The notes under the pieces: generated by a model
Databases searched by the model: none
Told to the model about the DNA's origin: nothing
The model's input: the letters and a program-made list of their open reading frames with translations, nothing else
Position numbers and translations under genes: made by a program
Part shown: positions 12,136 through 31,942 of the stretch, in pieces
Numbering within the stretch: position 1 is the stretch's first letter
Layout of the letters: each line of letters opens with the position of its first letter
Source of the DNA: Escherichia phage vB_EcoM_VR26
DNA: 64,000 nt
Direction: 5' to 3' (one strand)
Sequence record: NC_028957.1

Positions 12136-12429
12136 ATGGCTGGATTAAGTTTTAATCAATGTGTTACAGCAGGTCACGAAGCATGGCCACCGACTGTAAT
12201 CAATGCAACTCAAGGTAAAGTATTCACCGGGGGAATTCCTGTGTTAGTTGCCGGGGACCCTATTACCGAACATACCGAAATTAAAAAACCATATGAAACC
12301 CACGGTGGAGTAACACAACCAAGAACTCCGAAGGTATTTGTTACCGGTAAGAAAGCTGTTCAAATGGCGGACCCGATTTCATGTGGTGATACTGTGGCTC
12401 AAGCTTCAGGAAAGGTGTTCATAAAATGA
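12136..12429 (+). CDS. 5.4: gp5.4 PAAR-repeat spike-tip protein
   Basis: 97 aa, same length as T4 gp5.4; directly downstream of gene 5. Confidence 0.85.
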
Positions 12430-13103
12430 ACAAAGAATTTAATTTTGTATATGTAACTACAAACCTAGAAAATGGTAAAAAGTATATAGGCAAACATTCT
12501 ACTGATGATATGTTTGATGGATATTACGGTACAGGGGAGCTTATCAAAAAAGCTTATAAAAAATATGGAAAGGATTTGTTTGAGACAAAAATAATAAAAT
12601 TTTTTGATACTGAAGATGAGGCTTACGACTACGAAGAATTTTTAGTAGACGAATCTATAATTTATGATGATAGATATTATAATATAGATTTGGGTGGCAA
12701 AGGAAGTATGCGAGGAAGAAAGCATAAGGAATCTTCAAAGAAGCAAATATCAGACAAAATGAAGGGTAGGTCAAAGCCACCACGAAGTAAAGAATATATT
12801 GAAAATTTTGAAAAAGCTATGGCCAAAAGGAGAAAACCTAAGTCACCTCCTAAACCGAGGGTTTTTGTTAGAGGAGAAGAACATCCTTTATATAAAAGAC
12901 CCAGACCGCAATCTGTTATTGACCTATGTAAACTTAATAATAGAAAACACCCCATATGGCAATCATACGATATTTTATTCAAATTATGGAAAGAAAATGA
13001 TAAGCCAGGTTGGAGAAAAATGACCCGATTAGCCATTGAAAACGGATTTCCAAATACGGCTTATGATAAAATGATAAAACAATTTAAACAGGATTCAGAA
13101 TAA
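12426..13103 (+). CDS. GIY-YIG homing endonuclease (Seg-like)
   Basis: FVYVTTN...KYIGKHS GIY-YIG motif, Seg-like [21 protein letters not shown]3-like [12 protein letters not shown]; inserted between 5.4 and 6. Confidence 0.8.
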
Positions 13104-15049
13104 TGGCTACTCCTACGAATTACCAATTAACAAGAACCGTTAACGCTATCCCAAAAGTATTTGTGGGAGCTACGTTTGAAGAAATTAAAAAGAACATCAT
13201 CGACTGGTTATCAAGCCAGGATGAATTTAAGGATTATGATTTCGTAGGTTCGCGAATGAACATCCTGATTGATATGCTTGCATATAATACATTGTATATG
13301 CAGCAGTTTGCTAATACAGCGGTTTATGAAACATTCATCGGAACTGCAAACTTAAGGTCTTCGGTTGTTCAGGCGGCACAGGATAATGGCTATCTTCCAT
13401 CTTCTCGCTCAGCTGCAAAGACTTCTGTTATGTTGACGTGTTCCCATGCTCTGCAGCCATCGAATATTGAAATACCTCGTGGAACTAAGTTCCTGGCTTA
13501 TGCTCGGGATACATCAGCTGACCCTTATGTTTTTGTTACCACGGAAAATGTTATCGCAGTTAAAGATATTAACAACCAATACCTTCCGATTGTATCTCTG
13601 GCACAAGGTCGTATTATTCGTACAGAACTTTTATATGACCCGAAACAACCTATTCTTATTCGTGACCCGGATATCGACCGCAAAGAAGTTAAGTTATACG
13701 TGAACGGCGTTGAGTGGGTTGACTGGACGAACAAATCAATGGTTCACGCTGGTTCGACTTCCACCATATTTTATATGCGTGAAACAATCGATGGTTATAC
13801 GGAATTTTTCTTCGGTGAAGGTGAATCTACTAAATCTGTAGCCGGCGGCGTTATGGAAGCCAACTATATTGGCGGTCTTAAACCTGTGCAAGATTCGACA
13901 ATTGTTATTGAGTATCTTCGTACATCAGGAGCGGATGCTAACGGTGCAGTAGATTTCAGTTATGCTGATACGTTGTCTTATATCACAGTGGATAAGATTA
14001 CCGAAAACTACAATGACGACCCTGATTATGTCGGTGCCGATGGTGGTGGTGACCAGGAAGATATCGAACGAATCCGTGAACTGGCTGTTGTTAAACGTGA
14101 AGCGCAGATGCGTGCTGTCACCGGAACGGATTATGATACCTTCGTATCTGAAAGATTCGGCTCAATCGTGCAAGCCGTACAGACGTTTACGGACGCCAAT
14201 AAACCTGGGTATGCGTTTATATCAGTTAAGCCTAAATCGGGCCTATATCTCACTGCAGTGCAGCGTGAGGACATACAGAACTACCTGGCGGATTTCAACG
14301 TATCAACAATTACACCATCGGTTATTTCTCCAGATTATTTGTTCCTTAGACATAATATCAAAGTATCTTATGCACTGAACAAATTACAAGAATCTGAACA
14401 ATGGTTGCAAGCGCAAATCATTAATCAAATTGACCGTTATTATATCGATGAAGTCGAAATCTTTAACAGAAGTTTTGCTAAGTCAAAAATGCTCACATAT
14501 GTTGATAATACTGACCATAGTATTCTTGGTTCGTCTGCAACTATTTCGATGGTGCGTGAAGTCCTGAACTTCTTTAAGACACCAGAATCCGGCATTAAAT
14601 ACTATAACCAGTATGGCAACCGTTCCGTCGAATCAAGTGAATTTGAATTTGTTCCGACCACAGGTGAAGCCTATAACGTTCGCATTGTTGCAACTGATAA
14701 AGATTCTCGTGGTGATGGTAAAATGGTAATTGGTCCATTCCGTCAGGGCGATGTTATCGAAAACGTAAACATCCAGCCTTATCTACAAGATGACTTTAAT
14801 AAAATGGAAGCTCCGGCTGACCAAACAGTTTATTACGCAATCGGCGAAATTGACTATTATTCTGATTATATTTTTTGGGATATCGCTGCGATTGGATTGA
14901 CCTCCGACCGCTTTGAGGTTCAATCAATCGAACTTTATGCAAGTCCTAACCAAGATAATATATACACGCAAGATGGTTCGCTGATTGTATTTGAGAATGA
15001 CCTTCGTCCCCAATATACAAAGATTGACCTCGAACCAATTACACTATAA
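13103..15049 (+). CDS. 6: gp6 baseplate wedge protein
   Basis: 648 aa; synteny and similarity to T4 gp6. Confidence 0.9.
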   Translation: MATPTNYQLTRTVNAIPKVFVGATFEEIKKNIIDWLSSQDEFKDYDFVGSRMNILIDMLAYNTLYMQQFANTAVYETFIGTANLRSSVVQAAQDNGYLPSSRSAAKTSVMLTCSHALQPSNIEIPRGTKFLAYARDTSADPYVFVTTENVIAVKDINNQYLPIVSLAQGRIIRTELLYDPKQPILIRDPDIDRKEVKLYVNGVEWVDWTNKSMVHAGSTSTIFYMRETIDGYTEFFFGEGESTKSVAGGVMEANYIGGLKPVQDSTIVIEYLRTSGADANGAVDFSYADTLSYITVDKITENYNDDPDYVGADGGGDQEDIERIRELAVVKREAQMRAVTGTDYDTFVSERFGSIVQAVQTFTDANKPGYAFISVKPKSGLYLTAVQREDIQNYLADFNVSTITPSVISPDYLFLRHNIKVSYALNKLQESEQWLQAQIINQIDRYYIDEVEIFNRSFAKSKMLTYVDNTDHSILGSSATISMVREVLNFFKTPESGIKYYNQYGNRSVESSEFEFVPTTGEAYNVRIVATDKDSRGDGKMVIGPFRQGDVIENVNIQPYLQDDFNKMEAPADQTVYYAIGEIDYYSDYIFWDIAAIGLTSDRFEVQSIELYASPNQDNIYTQDGSLIVFENDLRPQYTKIDLEPITL

Positions 15050-24141: not shown

Positions 24142-26310
24142 ATGATTAATAAACTCAGTCTCAAAGAACTGCCGTATAGCATCGGTATTCCAGACGAAGG
24201 TCAACAGAGAATTCGTTGGATACAAAACGGTGATTGTATGACTGCGGCCAGTACCAAATATGGTCATGATGGTAATTTGAACGCCGCCGCGGTTGGCGTT
24301 CAAACAAACGTAGATACACTCGACGACAACTCAAATACATCTAAAGAAAAAATCAATGAAATTATTGATAACGTCAATAATATCCAGGAAGCTTTGGATA
24401 TAACAACTAACACGGAAGTTGTTAAGCAAATTGAAAAAAACCGTACGGATATTCTTGACCTGGACGAACGTCAATTTAATACCGAATTGCTGTCAAGCGA
24501 AACATCAGAAGGTCTTAAAACGTTAAAGGAAGATGTTGGTGTTTATGACCCATTAACCGATTCATATTATCGCACTGTTCGTAATGACCTTGTATGGATT
24601 AAAAATGAATTAGGTCAGTATGTTGACCAAGATATAAATGGTCTACAGGTTATTGGTAATCCATCAAGAGGCATGAAACGTCGCATCATCGATAACAGTT
24701 CGGCTATTGTTGCTCATGGAGTTCGTATTAAGACTCTTGAGGATAATTACCATGATTCTGATGTTGGTTCTCTTAACGTAAAAGTAATTAAAATTCGCGA
24801 AGAATTGGGTGAGTCGACTTTAGCAGTAGGTAAACCAGCTGTATTTGTTCGACTGAATACTCTTGACGACAAAGTAGTCGAAATTGACAAAGATATTGCC
24901 AATATTCAAGAAGATATCGGTTTTGGCACCGGGCTTGCAATTACAACTCGCGTTGAAAATCTTGGTGGACGTGTTTCGGTCAATGAAACAGATATTGCGA
25001 ATATCAAACCAAGACTCACTAAGGTTGAAGCTGATATCGGCACCGCTCTGGAACCATTAACAATTAATGGTCGAATCAGTGCTTTGCGCTCGGATGTTAA
25101 TGGATTGCAGGCTGTTGTTGGTCAGGATTCAAGTTCAGGTTTGCGCGGAACCACTGCATGGCTTTCTCAGAGAATCGGTACAGAGCAATCTCCGGAGCCA
25201 AACACCATCACGTATAAGTTGAATGCAACCACTGCGCTGGCTAATGAAACTGTATCAGGTCTCCAGGATGTGCAGGCTGAAATTGGTACAAATAGCACTG
25301 GTATGAAAGGTTCTATTTTGACTTTAACTAGCCAGATGAACGGGACTAACCCTAACGGTGCTACTGTGGCTGAACGTGGTGTTCTTCCAGTCGTAATTAA
25401 CTTGGATATGTTGATGGCATCCAAGCTGAACGATGCACCGTTGGACAACAAGTTATACGGCCGCAAGCAAGGTGCCTGGTCTGAAATTATCGATTCCACA
25501 ACCGAAGTTGATGCAGTTAAAGCTTCATTGGTAACAACTGATGGACGCGTAACAACATTAACTGGTCGTGTCGATGATAATGATACAACAATCAGTTCGT
25601 TAGATACTCGTTATGGTGCATTGAACACTTCCGTTACGAATGTTAAGGCAGATGTTCTCGCTCTGCAAAATAAAGATACGGAACAAGATGGTCGAATTAC
25701 TGCATTAGAAACGAAGGATACGACTGTTGATGGTAAAATAACCGCATTGGAAACTAAAACATCTACGACCGATGATGATGTCACTGCTTTAGCTTTAGAC
25801 GTTAGCAATGTTGAAGGTGAGCTGGTTACCATTAAAGCAAATATCGAAACAAACAAAGGCGGTTTGGTAACCTTGACCGGTCGAATGACTTCGGCGGAAG
25901 GGGAAATCACTGCAATTAAACTCGATACTGCAAAAATTACACCGTTAACTGCTCGTGTTTCATCAAGTGAAAACGAAATCACTGCAATTAAACTCGATAC
26001 TGCAAAAATTGCGCCGCTAGACGAAAGAGTTACAACAGCTGAAGATGAAATCAATACGATTAAAATCGATACTGCAAAAATTGCACCGTTAACTACTCGT
26101 GTGACAACTCTTGAAGGTACAGTAACTCCGCTCCCTGGTCGCCTGGATGCAGCCGAGACGAAGATAACTACTTTAGAAGGTAAAGTATCAGCCTTAGAAA
26201 CGGAGCTCGCCAAAAGGCCTCCTGTCGCTCCTGTGGCTGATGGTCTCCCTTACGTGCTTGTTGATAATGCATGGGTTCTTTTGTCTACATTCGTGACTGT
26301 TGGACCATAA
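24142..26310 (+). CDS. wac: fibritin (wac) neck whisker, extended coiled coil
   Basis: 722 aa (T4 wac about 487 as recalled); heptad-rich coiled coil; C-terminal foldon-like ...AWVLLSTFV. Confidence 0.85.
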   Translation: MINKLSLKELPYSIGIPDEGQQRIRWIQNGDCMTAASTKYGHDGNLNAAAVGVQTNVDTLDDNSNTSKEKINEIIDNVNNIQEALDITTNTEVVKQIEKNRTDILDLDERQFNTELLSSETSEGLKTLKEDVGVYDPLTDSYYRTVRNDLVWIKNELGQYVDQDINGLQVIGNPSRGMKRRIIDNSSAIVAHGVRIKTLEDNYHDSDVGSLNVKVIKIREELGESTLAVGKPAVFVRLNTLDDKVVEIDKDIANIQEDIGFGTGLAITTRVENLGGRVSVNETDIANIKPRLTKVEADIGTALEPLTINGRISALRSDVNGLQAVVGQDSSSGLRGTTAWLSQRIGTEQSPEPNTITYKLNATTALANETVSGLQDVQAEIGTNSTGMKGSILTLTSQMNGTNPNGATVAERGVLPVVINLDMLMASKLNDAPLDNKLYGRKQGAWSEIIDSTTEVDAVKASLVTTDGRVTTLTGRVDDNDTTISSLDTRYGALNTSVTNVKADVLALQNKDTEQDGRITALETKDTTVDGKITALETKTSTTDDDVTALALDVSNVEGELVTIKANIETNKGGLVTLTGRMTSAEGEITAIKLDTAKITPLTARVSSSENEITAIKLDTAKIAPLDERVTTAEDEINTIKIDTAKIAPLTTRVTTLEGTVTPLPGRLDAAETKITTLEGKVSALETELAKRPPVAPVADGLPYVLVDNAWVLLSTFVTVGP
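25903..26118 (+). repeat. three tandem 72-bp repeats inside wac
   Basis: Units at 25903, 25975 and 26047 all begin GAAATCA...; the first 36 nt of units 1 and 2 are identical; each encodes EIT/NAIKLDTAKIAPL. Confidence 0.8.
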
Positions 26311-26311
26311 C

Positions 26312-26334
26312 AAAAGGGCTTCGGCCCTTTTTTC
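26312..26334 (+). terminator. rho-independent terminator after wac
   Basis: AAAGGGC TTCG GCCCTTT followed by TTT. Confidence 0.7.
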
Positions 26335-26335
26335 G

Positions 26336-26343
26336 TATAAATA
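26336..26343 (+). promoter_or_regulatory. late promoter TATAAATA for gene 13
   Basis: Exact TATAAATA about 19 nt upstream of the gene 13 ATG. Confidence 0.65.
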
Positions 26344-26361
26344 CAGTAAAGAGGAAAACAT

Positions 26362-27300
26362 ATGGCAACTGAATCATACAACCCGAAACAATTAAAAGAT
26401 GCAATCCTTCGTCGTCTTGGTGCTCCAATCACGAATATCGAAGTTACGACCGACCAAGTCTATGATTGCATCCAGCGTGCATTAGAATTATACGGTGAAT
26501 ATCATTATAATGGATATAACAAAGGTTATCAGGCTTTTTATATCGGTCATGATGAAGTTTCACAACAGAAATTCCGCGATGGTGTTTTCGATTTAAAAGG
26601 ACGTAATATTTTTGCAGTAACGCAGATTATTCGTACTAACGTCGGTTCATTAACTTCAATGGACGGACAAGCCACATATCCATGGTTTACAGATTTCGTT
26701 CTGGGCCTTGCCGGGATTAACGGTGGGATGGGTAGCTCGTGTAATAGCTTTGGTCCAAATGCTTTTGGTGCAGACCTTGGTTATTTTACACAGCTTATGC
26801 AATATCGTTCAATGATGCAAGACCTGATGGTTCCGCTTCCGGATTACTGGTATAACGATGATACCGAACAACTTAAAATTATGGGCAACTTCCGTCAGGG
26901 GGATGTGATTGTAATTGAAGTTTATACCAAATCGTATAACGGTGTGGATTCAATGGTTGGCAATACAGCTGGTTATGGTTTTGCCTCGGCTGATTGTGAT
27001 AATCCGTGGAATGCCGGTGCACAGTGGGATAACCCGGCGCGCAGAATAAGCGGTATGAGAGCTGGTGAGGACCTTGGACTTCAAGATGGTGCATACAACA
27101 ACCGTTGGGTGAAAGACTATGCCACGGCGCTTGTTAAGGAAGTTAACGGCAACGTATTGGCTAAACACCAAGGGATGATGATGCCAGGTGGAGTTACGGT
27201 CGATGGTGTTCGTTTAATCGAAGAAGCTCGTATGGAAAAAGAACGTCTCCGCGAAGAACTTGACCTGCTGGATGCACCGACTCCTATATTGGTGGGCTAA
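26362..27300 (+). CDS. 13: gp13 neck protein
   Basis: 312 aa; synteny. Confidence 0.9.
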
Positions 27301-27935
27301 TGGCTACATATTATAGACTTTATGTGTCGACATTTGAAACATCTAATGGGGTAATGGTGTATGGCGGTAAACGTCATTCACCATATGAAGATTTTAAAGC
27401 AGATAGTTATTTTGGGTCGGGTACTATTGTTAAACGAGCTAAACAAAAATATGGAAGAAAATGTTTAGTCGATATTACCTGGTCTAAACCTTTTGAATCC
27501 CCTGCTCTATTAAAGGAAGCCGAGGCTTTACTAGTCAGTGAACTTTTAGAAAGTTTTGATAATTGTGCAAATTTACACCCAACAGGGGGAGGTGGCCCGG
27601 AAGGTTATAGTCGTCCAGAAGATTCCCCTGCTTTTGGTAAAAAGAGAACAGCAGAATCAAGAAAACGAATGTCGGAAGCCGCAAAACAAAGGGAATGGTC
27701 CGAAGAGGGATTAAAACGTCGTAAAGAGGCAACAGCTCGAATGTGGATTGATTTTAAGGACCGACATCCTGATTTTTCTGATGATAAAAATCCGGCCGCA
27801 CGTAAAATTATTACCGGCGACCTAGAATTTTGTACCGGAAGAAAATGTGCAGAATATTATTCGATAACTCCGGCTGCAGTCATTTACAGATGTAAAAGTA
27901 CAGCCGAAAAATGGAAATTATGGAATTATGCGTAA
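27300..27935 (+). CDS. Seg-like GIY-YIG homing endonuclease, degenerate motif
   Basis: YRLYV...[26 protein letters not shown] and NUMOD3-like [13 protein letters not shown] parallel the 12426 ORF; inserted between 13 and 14. Confidence 0.65.
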
Positions 27936-28716
27936 TTCTTATGATGCAAGCTTATTCGCCCGACTTGAAGATGGAACCGGGTATGACAATACAAACTCGT
28001 CAGAGATACTCAACCAATATGTAAACTTTATGCATCATGAAAATACCCAGACTTTAGCCGATGTTATTGTTGCTGAAAGTATTCAGATGCGCGGAATGTC
28101 TCTCTATTACATCCCAAGACAATTCGTTAAACCAGATTTGTTATTCGGCGAAGACCTCCAGAGCAAATTTGATAAAGCATGGAAATTTGCTGGTTATCTG
28201 GATACATTCGATGCATATCAGGGTGATGGTTCCATCTTCAGTAAATTTGGTATGACTGTGAATGATGAAATCACAGTGTCGATTAACCCTAATCTGTTTA
28301 AACATCAATGTAATGGAACCGAACCTATTGCCGGGGATTTGATTTATTTCCCTCTCGATAACAGTCTGTTCGAAATAACCTGGGTACAGCCTTATGACCC
28401 ATTCTATCAGGTAGGTCAAAACGCCATCCGTAAAATCACCGCGAGCAAATACATTTACTCCGGAGAAGAGCTTAAACCTGAATTGCAACGAAATGAAGGT
28501 ATTAATATTCCAGAATTCAGTGAGCTCGATTTGCAACCAATCCACAATATCGATGGCCTTACAGATATCAGTGATATCCCTTATGCAGAATCTGATGAGA
28601 TTAACGCAGAAGCAGCTGAATATGTTAAACCATATTTTGTGCAGAATGGTCGTGGGATTGAGTCTCCTCCTAAGGCAAAACAGGATAGCTTTGACGACAG
28701 TTTCTTTGATGAATAA
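27928..28716 (+). CDS. 14: gp14 neck protein
   Basis: 262 aa; synteny. Confidence 0.9.
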
Positions 28717-28759
28717 ATACATTTATTAATGCGCCCGAACTGGGCGCCTGGAGGTTACT

Positions 28760-29631
28760 TTGTTTGGGCATTTTTATAATTCGTCTCTGCGTCGCTATAT
28801 CGTTTTAATGGGCGATTTATTTTCCCATGTACAAGTGGCCAGAACCAGAGAAGACACTGGACTTAAATATATTAAGGTCCCTATTTCTTATGCTTCAAAA
28901 GAAAAATTCATGATGCAGCTTGGAAAATGGACCGCTATTCAGAATACACCGACTCCTGACATGACACCGCAAGAACGTGCTGCTCAGAAGGCTAAAATCG
29001 AGACCGTACTGCCCCGTATGAACTTACATCTTGTTGACTTGATGTATAACGGGCAATATAAAACGGCTCTCCAGAATCACACACAGGCGCGATTTGCTAA
29101 TAACGACCCTCGCAAGCAGATATCTCAATATTCTCCTGTACCGGTCAAAATGATTTTTGAGCTTGGGATATATACAAGGCATCAAGATGATATGTTCCAG
29201 ATTATCGAACAAATCATGCCTTACTTCCAACCGCATTTTAATACAACTATCACTGAACTTTACACGAATGAAATTACATTCGAACGTGATATAAGAATCG
29301 TGCTTCAGTCCATTGCTATGGATGAGCAAATTGAAGGTGATGCAATGACTCGTCGTAGACTCGAATGGTCCATTATGTTCGAAGTCAACGGCTGGTTATA
29401 TCCACCGGTTAAAGAAGTGGCCGGAGAAATCCGTACTATCTATCTTGACTTCTTTGCAAATTCCAGAGAGCTTGCGCCGGAAGGTAATTTCGAATCTGTT
29501 GACTCGGAAGCCGTTCCGCGAGACGTTGACCAAGAAGACTGGCAAGGTGAATCCATTCAAACATATTCGCAGGATATTCCTGTACCGGTTGACCCGGTAC
29601 CCCCAGCACCGCGACAAAATAAGGTACCATT

Positions 29632-29635: not shown

Positions 29636-31942
<2,307 letters not shown>

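Follow-up and report, generated by a model that had tools for sequence, protein, structure and literature searches.

A conserved clade-specific variant of the GIY-YIG motif in a probably functional Seg-type homing endonuclease gene between neck genes 13 and 14 of Escherichia phage vB_EcoM_VR26

When the catalytic motif of a homing endonuclease departs from its canonical form, has the gene decayed, or does it belong to a lineage with a motif of its own? This question is raised by an open reading frame (ORF) of 211 amino acids (27300..27935, plus strand, ATG to stop) located between genes 13 and 14 in a 64,000-nucleotide (nt) stretch of the genome of Escherichia phage vB_EcoM_VR26 (NC_028957.1), which we call the window and to which all coordinates refer. 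The free-standing GIY-YIG homing endonucleases of phage T4, SegA to SegG, are responsible for intron-less homing and for marker exclusion. According to the initial annotation, the ORF is a second Seg-like endonuclease gene of GIY-YIG type, lies between genes 13 and 14 and overlaps the start of gene 14 with its 3' end; we indeed observed this position and an overlap of 8 nt. The motif residues that it quoted are also present (M-A-T-Y-Y-R-L-Y-V...V-M-V-Y-G-G). However, its reading of this motif as degenerate and possibly inactivated is not supported, because RLY...YGG is a clade-wide signature, the catalytic half is under strong constraint and the locus carries a fresh signature of homing. It is likely that the ORF is a functional free-standing ("intron-less") Seg-type homing endonuclease gene specialised for the 13/14 junction of T4-like phages, and inactivation is not supported by the sequence comparisons.

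We aligned 128 Seg-like N-domains with I-TevI and SegD of T4, both taken from the T4 record. A subfamily of 48 of the 128 domains shares the signature x-R-[TL]-Y ... Y-[AG]-G-K-[RH]-x-S. Residues R6, Y8, Y21, G23, S27 and E75 are present in every one of its members (48/48), N91 in 47 and R or H at position 25 likewise in 47. The other Seg-like domains keep the E75 position in 79 of 80 cases and the N91 position in all 80. Y21 and G23, which correspond to Y17 and G19 of I-TevI, are invariant in all 128 domains, and the residue between them is G or A in the subfamily, not I or V. The catalytically relevant residues of I-TevI are Y6, Y17, R27, H31, E74/75 and N87/90 (PMC3161791). MAFFT set I-TevI one column out of register near E75 and N90; hmmalign to the family hidden Markov model (HMM) corrected the register and placed I-TevI Y17, E75 and N90 on Y21, E75 and N91. 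We therefore read RLY as the probable counterpart of GIY, and YGG as that of YIG, in what appears to be a conserved, clade-specific long-hairpin variant and not a product of decay.

Assignment to the GIY-YIG superfamily rests on profile-profile comparison and on a predicted fold. The subfamily matched the canonical Seg N-domains in hhalign at 99.8% (E = 6e-29). An AlphaFold model built from 24 sequences (mean predicted local distance difference test score 83) shows a long beta-hairpin (residues 4-14 and 17-27), a helix (42-51), a strand (56-61) and a second helix (68-85), followed by a poorly ordered linker and a small helical C-terminal domain; the predicted arrangement corresponds to the beta-beta-alpha-alpha-beta-alpha fold of I-TevI and the UvrC N-domain. 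The N-terminal domain of GIY-YIG fold (residues 1-97; 27300..27590, plus strand) carries the candidate active-site residues R6, Y8, Y21, R25/H26, E75 and N91. It is followed by a NUMOD3-like linker motif (residues 109-125; 27624..27674, plus strand) that scores below threshold in Pfam (17.3 bits against a gathering score of 20.4), a weak match that the homologues also give. The C-terminal part (residues ~152-211; 27753..27932, plus strand) is predicted by homology to be an I-TevI-type DNA-binding helix-turn-helix: a profile of 10 homologues matches the DNA-binding domain of I-TevI (1i3j_A, E = 3.9e-5), corresponding to I-TevI residues ~185-245, and PF20987 (I-TevI_DNA-bd) falls just under threshold in several homologues. 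Phage GIY-YIG homing endonucleases are typically built in this modular way, from a GIY-YIG domain, a linker and a helix-turn-helix (PMC2988022, PMC1564403). Two cysteines of the catalytic domain, Cys55 (27462-27464) and Cys89 (27564-27566), are kept in 39 and 47 of the 48 long-hairpin domains, respectively; in canonical Seg-like domains the first of these positions is mostly Asn and the second Cys, Thr or Gly. They may form a clade-specific structural pair.

The ORF is far from a chance reading frame, as judged by its match to PHROG 314 "homing endonuclease" (E = 3.9e-30), by its 7037 relatives at E < 1e-3 in an exhaustive profile search of a representative library and by a ratio of non-synonymous to synonymous substitution rates (dN/dS, or omega) of about 0.05. 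Compared with five SP18-type alleles, it shows 36.5-39.5 synonymous and only 7.5-8.5 non-synonymous differences. Omega is 0.04-0.05 for the whole gene, and the catalytic half (0.04) is more constrained than the remainder (0.08). Such a low dN/dS, along with the clade-wide invariance of the key residues, rules out a pseudogene or a gene in decay. GenBank already labels orthologues of 96-97% identity in SP18, RZ and P8 "homing endonuclease", and the literature searched held no paper on, or characterisation of, an endonuclease at the 13/14 junction. The gene name "segC" given to the SP18 endonuclease is misleading.

How is the gene inserted? The window comes from a T4-type Gaprivervirus, and the region is 92-97% identical to that of phages SP18, VR7 and TH15. 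Gene 13 (neck, head-tail adaptor; 26362..27300, plus strand) was identified by PHROG 211, head-tail adaptor Ad2 (E = 8e-42), and by PF26809 (Phage_T4_gp13), which matches in identical contexts; gene 14 (neck, head closure; 27928..28716, plus strand) was identified by Pfam T4_neck-protein (E = 2e-103). The TAA stop codon of gene 13 overlaps the ATG of the endonuclease ORF in the sequence TAATG. At the other end, the 8-nt overlap ATGCGTAA joins the ORF to gene 14, and the ORF stop lies 5 nt past the gene 14 ATG. In genomes without the endonuclease, gene 14 itself begins on the gene 13 stop, with CTAATGGCTACATAT directly followed by GACGCGAAC (M-A-T-Y-D-A-N...); the empty junction, in the VR7 or TH15 allele, contains GGGCTAATGGCTACATATGACGCGAACTTATTCGCC. 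The first 12 nt of the ORF, ATGGCTACATAT (27300..27311, plus strand; M-A-T-Y), are the same as gene 14 codons 1-4 of the endonuclease-free VR7 and TH15. These 12 nt now open the endonuclease (M-A-T-Y-Y-R-L-Y), and the 3' end of the insert supplies a new gene 14 start (M-R-N-S-Y-D-A-S...), whose first five codons (M-R-N-S-Y; plus strand), inside and adjoining the endonuclease 3' end, replace the native M-A-T-Y. The ORF thus occupies the native start of gene 14 together with its coupling to gene 13. This overlapping start also bears on the SP18 record (GQ981382; L001 2633-3421), in which GenBank begins gene 14 at an internal ATG (2735 of the locus, 228 amino acids); records of the same sequence begin it at 2633 (262 amino acids), overlapping the endonuclease stop. 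The SP18 start has probably been mis-called.

The gene behaves as a clean 631-bp indel, being present in 7 and missing from 24 Gaprivervirus records with exact junctions in megablast. The window is near-identical (0-1% divergent) to the endonuclease-free TH15 through gene 13 and again from ~28077. The first ~100 bp of gene 14, in contrast, are 2-4% divergent from those of the SP18-like carriers and ~10% from that of TH15. Fourteen endonuclease-linked substitutions in gene 14 codons 6-30 (27945..28017, plus strand) are common to all carriers, and this segment may either contain the target site or confer immunity to cleavage. A blastn search with 27940-28060 against the 31 records separated the 7 carriers (97.5% identity) from the 24 non-carriers (85.7-87.6%) with none between, so that the linkage of the endonuclease with the variant gene 14 5' allele is perfect. 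Further downstream in gene 14, position 28064 (codon 46) is a T that changes Ala to Val (ADVIVAES vs ADAIVAES) only in the window, by comparison with 13 other genomes and contigs.

An identical protein is encoded on 13 metagenome contigs, each with the order gene 13, endonuclease, gene 14. Comparison of the window with six of these contigs (two of which, L016 and L020, are identical to each other) revealed a recently mobile cassette of 729 bp (27312..28040, plus strand), consisting of the 631-bp insertion and the co-converted first ~110 bp of gene 14. The cassette diverges by 0-1.0%, whereas its flanks, with the identical pair set aside, diverge by 4.3-8.3% in gene 13 and by 2.0-5.1% in genes 14-15. 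The ends of the identical tract vary by contig, from 27202 to 27298 on the left and roughly from 27975 to 28095 on the right, and contig L019 carries the window's allele joined to an SP18-type left junction. Five to six distinct, diverged backbones share one cassette and have separate short endpoints, as would follow from repeated double-strand-break repair from a carrier template, which is known to yield such co-conversion tracts (PMC2988022). The pattern is the expected signature of a recent spread by homing, as far as sequence evidence can suggest it. The G+C content at third codon positions (GC3) of the endonuclease gene (0.23, compared with 0.36-0.39 in neighbouring genes) fits a foreign origin.

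The same junction is occupied in four genera, Gaprivervirus included. Homologues of 49-59% identity lie at the 13/14 junction with their stop over the gene 14 start in Tequatrovirus (F2 and others), Slopekvirus (phT4A and Klebsiella phages) and Krischvirus (G5211). The G5211 protein (L007 1486-2130) is of the long-hairpin R-L-Y type and 57% identical to that of the window. The design in Tequatrovirus is the same as here: T4 is empty (gp14 M-A-T-Y-D-K-N), and F2 is occupied (endonuclease M-A-T-Y-Y-R-L-Y, gp14 M-S-T-Y-N-S-N). At a divergence of 15-40% per 50 bp, the comparison of T4 with F2 cannot reveal a co-conversion tract in that genus. In Gaprivervirus and Tequatrovirus the gene sits directly on the gene 13 stop, whereas in Slopekvirus and Krischvirus it is preceded by a short spacer of its own that contains a Shine-Dalgarno sequence. 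Such a spacer is seen in Krischvirus phage Phi1 (L008), in which 66 nt (1429-1494) with the inverted repeat GTTCTCGT...ACGAGAAC and an AAGGAG Shine-Dalgarno precede an enzyme at 1495-2079. The Phi1 enzyme is of the canonical type, and its occurrence at the same junction as the long-hairpin enzymes implies that two catalytic flavours have been joined to related DNA-binding domains at one target.

From these data we propose how the element would move. When a carrier and an endonuclease-free relative infect the same cell, the enzyme would, late in infection, use its helix-turn-helix to bind the relative's DNA, either at the empty 13/14 junction or at the 5' end of gene 14. The GIY-YIG domain would then cut nearby; E75 would hold a metal ion, and the active site would also include Y8, Y21, R25/H26 and N91. 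Repair of the break from the carrier genome would copy the gene along with ~100 bp of flanking gene 14. The carrier allele itself would escape cutting because the insertion splits the site and because of the 14 changes in gene 14 codons 6-30.

Several observations weigh against an active homing endonuclease of this kind. No Pfam GIY-YIG model (PF01541 or PF19835) matched the ORF even at E <= 1, nor did one match other subfamily members; NCBIfam TIGR01453 reached 15.6 bits against a cut-off of 56, phmmer found nothing in the PDB, and Foldseek missed the catalytic domain. The helix that carries R27 and H31 in I-TevI is without counterpart, and R27 aligns to D31. Ungapped profile alignments (hmmalign and hhalign) put the I-TevI Y6 column on S10, a position that is variable in the subfamily (T, V, I, F or S) and never Tyr, compared with Tyr in 76 of the 80 other Seg-like domains. 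The equivalence of Y8 with Y6 would accordingly depend on a gapped pairwise alignment, on variation in hairpin length and on register reasoning. The mosaic pattern reveals localised transfer and says nothing of who made the break, the target site is bracketed only by the junction and 27945-28017, and no cleavage or homing experiment for this lineage was found in the literature searched.

The initial annotation had named the absence of catalytic Arg, Glu and Tyr in a proper alignment, together with a lack of nuclease activity, as evidence against its own reading, and with respect to these residues the answer is mixed: the Glu and the second Tyr are present, the first Tyr is ambiguous and the Arg is uninformative. 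The R27/H31 helix is equally missing in canonical Seg-like domains, for example in T4 SegD and in the other Seg-like ORF of the window, which starts at 12426, and its absence here is therefore no evidence of inactivation. Canonical Seg-like domains have a basic residue (H or R) two positions past YxG, and here R25 is found, followed by H26. Table 1 of PMC2988022 gives six T4 Seg enzymes as active and the seventh, SegD, as not determined.

The ambiguity of the first Tyr leads to an alternative in which the nuclease is active but has a rewired site, the tyrosine having moved by two positions (Y8 for S10) and R6 having replaced the R27-type arginine, so that chemistry or product could differ from those of I-TevI. 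The placement of S10 in the tyrosine column by the ungapped alignments favours this view, as does R6, which is invariant in the subfamily and missing from canonical Seg domains; by beta-strand periodicity, R6, Y8 and S10 would lie on the same strand face. However, the same data can be explained without rewiring by a one-residue extension of each hairpin strand, which would leave the cross-strand relation of the first and second tyrosines intact. In BLASTP with the Phi1 enzyme, the closest canonical relative, two single-residue gaps in the hairpin indeed align Y8 to the GIY tyrosine. The spacing of the two invariant tyrosines is 12, 13 or 14 residues in the subfamily (12 in the ORF), compared with 10 in 70 canonical domains and 12-13 in 9, which suggests that the hairpin changes length at its tip while its base stays fixed. 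We regard the rewired site as possible but somewhat unlikely, and it overlaps with the long-hairpin reading on function, differing only in active-site detail. A more far-reaching version appears unlikely to us, namely that the R-[LT]-Y...Y-[GA]-G clade is truly rewired, with R6 standing in for the arginine helix, and that the element is in addition anchored in an addiction-like manner through its takeover of the gene 14 start. If this were true, an imprecise deletion would kill expression of an essential neck protein, and the element would be hard to lose.

A second alternative is that the ORF is a catalytically dead, domesticated relic, kept as a DNA-binding protein such as a regulator, or only for the gene 14 start and translational coupling. 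The Ser in the canonical first-tyrosine column, the missing R27 helix and the failure of the Pfam GIY-YIG models would all agree with this, and I-TevI also acts as a repressor (PMC2988022). Moreover, deletion or truncation could be costly, because the ORF contains the start of gene 14 and covers its native initiation region. Because gene 14 needs the ORF for its start, selection to hold the frame open can indeed be proposed; yet coupling selects only against stops and frameshifts and does not explain why amino-acid change is suppressed, most strongly in the catalytic half. E75 and both tyrosines are invariant, and N91 nearly so, across a deep clade. The recent sweep through several backbones with short, variable co-conversion tracts would also be unexpected for a passive regulator, and we consider a dead relic improbable. 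Most improbable is a passenger whose mosaic arose through ordinary homologous recombination or a break made by another nuclease: T4-like phages do recombine very frequently, the neighbouring wac is also mosaic, no cleavage site has been identified and the divergence of the endonuclease gene from SP18 is greater at the 5' end than at the 3' end, pointing to recombination within the gene too, but the near-identical tract is centred on the gene in 5/5 distinct other backbones and ends within ~100 bp on the left and ~40-160 bp on the right, the gene 14 5' allele is linked without exception in 31 records, related genes occupy the exact same junction in four genera, and random recombination does not predict such a focus. 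A functional endonuclease with a conserved long-hairpin motif remains the reading that we favour.

How would such a gene be expressed? A T4-type late promoter core, TATAAATA (26336..26343, plus strand), precedes gene 13; the core has 21 matches in the window against 5 expected, and none falls between 26343 and the next one, at 31436. No terminator-like site was found in 26000-29000, and scans for sigma-70 promoters and terminators gave results at or below chance. The endonuclease ORF is presumably transcribed from this core, the sole late promoter before 31436, and on this sequence evidence it forms a cassette within the late 13-14-15 message that has no promoter of its own. Promoter-less cassettes are also how several T4 seg and mob genes have been described (PMC2988022). 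RNA folding at the starts of the endonuclease and of gene 14 and at the empty junction was no better than that of shuffled sequences (z = -0.75, +0.63 and -0.62, respectively), so a sequestered ribosome-binding site is not supported. Ribosomes presumably enter gene 14 by reinitiating at AUGCGUAA, or by way of a weak purine-rich sequence in the last codons of the endonuclease.

Upstream of gene 13, we also noted that wac, which encodes fibritin (24142-26310), is strongly mosaic, especially in ~25300-26200. It is near-identical to the TH15 gene, shows 25-48% mismatches and large indels against those of SP18 and VR7, and has milder divergence with the same indels against other carriers. The window fibritin has 722 amino acids, and the SP18 and VR7 versions have ~525-530.

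The novelty lies in a conserved long-hairpin variant of the motif, which escapes standard models, and in a natural record of homing that is unusually clean. Although the motif looks decayed and is invisible to Pfam, the gene is intact, under selection and evidently mobile, and annotators and motif screens would accordingly under-call this clade. The value of the finding is mostly corrective, and the known workings of such elements are unchanged by it. In four phage genera the candidate target is the place where an essential neck gene starts, and the same ~730-bp cassette appears to have entered several diverged backbones with different endpoints. The locus is thus a convenient system for mapping a new Seg target site, for studying the first-motif residues and for following the translation of an essential gene after displacement of its start.

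A six-frame hmmsearch with the Seg-domain HMM detected only two Seg-like ORFs in the window, the one at 27300 and the one of 225 amino acids at 12426..13103 (plus strand), located between gp5.4 (12136-12429) and gp6 (13103-15049). The two are related in BLASTP (28% identity over 202 residues, E = 3e-10). They share the Seg-like layout, a low GC3 (0.24 in the 12426 ORF) and a position wedged between structural genes, where the 12426 ORF overlaps the gp5.4 stop and abuts the gp6 start. The 12426 ORF differs in having the canonical FVY...YIG, with Pfam SegE_GIY-YIG (26.1 bits) and GIY-YIG (22.0 bits) both around threshold, and no I-TevI-type C-terminal domain was detected in it. The earlier suggestion that the 27300 ORF is "retargeted" holds in the weak sense that it has such a DNA-binding domain and a different site from that of the 12426 ORF.

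The Phi1 "SegC" protein (ABR24660, P0059; Krischvirus) has the same 13/14 site, the same 8-nt gene 14 overlap and the same architecture as the window protein, with 32% identity over the full length that is highest in the C-terminal helix-turn-helix. It differs by its canonical hairpin, which Pfam SegE_GIY-YIG recognises, and by its own upstream spacer. Orthology of these proteins with T4 SegC, as the GenBank name "segC" in SP18 and Phi1 would have it, was rejected, since the similarity is weak and T4 segC lies between 5.1 and 5.3.

I-TevI of the T4 td intron (1LN0, 1I3J/1T2T) is the best structural match for both halves of the ORF, with a GIY-YIG domain, a linker and a C-terminal helix-turn-helix and with the equivalents of Y17, E75 and N90 conserved. 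Unlike the intron-encoded I-TevI, the ORF is free-standing, and the R27/H31 helix is a loop in it. Its linker of ~55 amino acids contains only the NUMOD3-like motif and no zinc finger (no Cys cluster), compared with 75 amino acids and a zinc finger in I-TevI (PMC2988022).

With regard to the T4 Seg family, the ORF is orthologous to none of SegA to SegG, and T4 has no gene between 13 and 14. It also differs in its first motif (R-[LT]-Y), in a tyrosine spacing of 12 instead of 10, in having Y-[GA]-G for YIG and in being missed by the Pfam Seg and GIY-YIG models. In other respects it is much like the T4 enzymes. It is free-standing, promoter-less and wedged between conserved genes of a host operon, and it has an N-terminal GIY-YIG-type domain with the Seg features YxG-x-[H/R], Y-x-GSG, KYG, E and N, followed by C-terminal DNA-binding modules. 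It also shares with them the presence/absence polymorphism and the co-conversion of flanking markers (PMC2988022).

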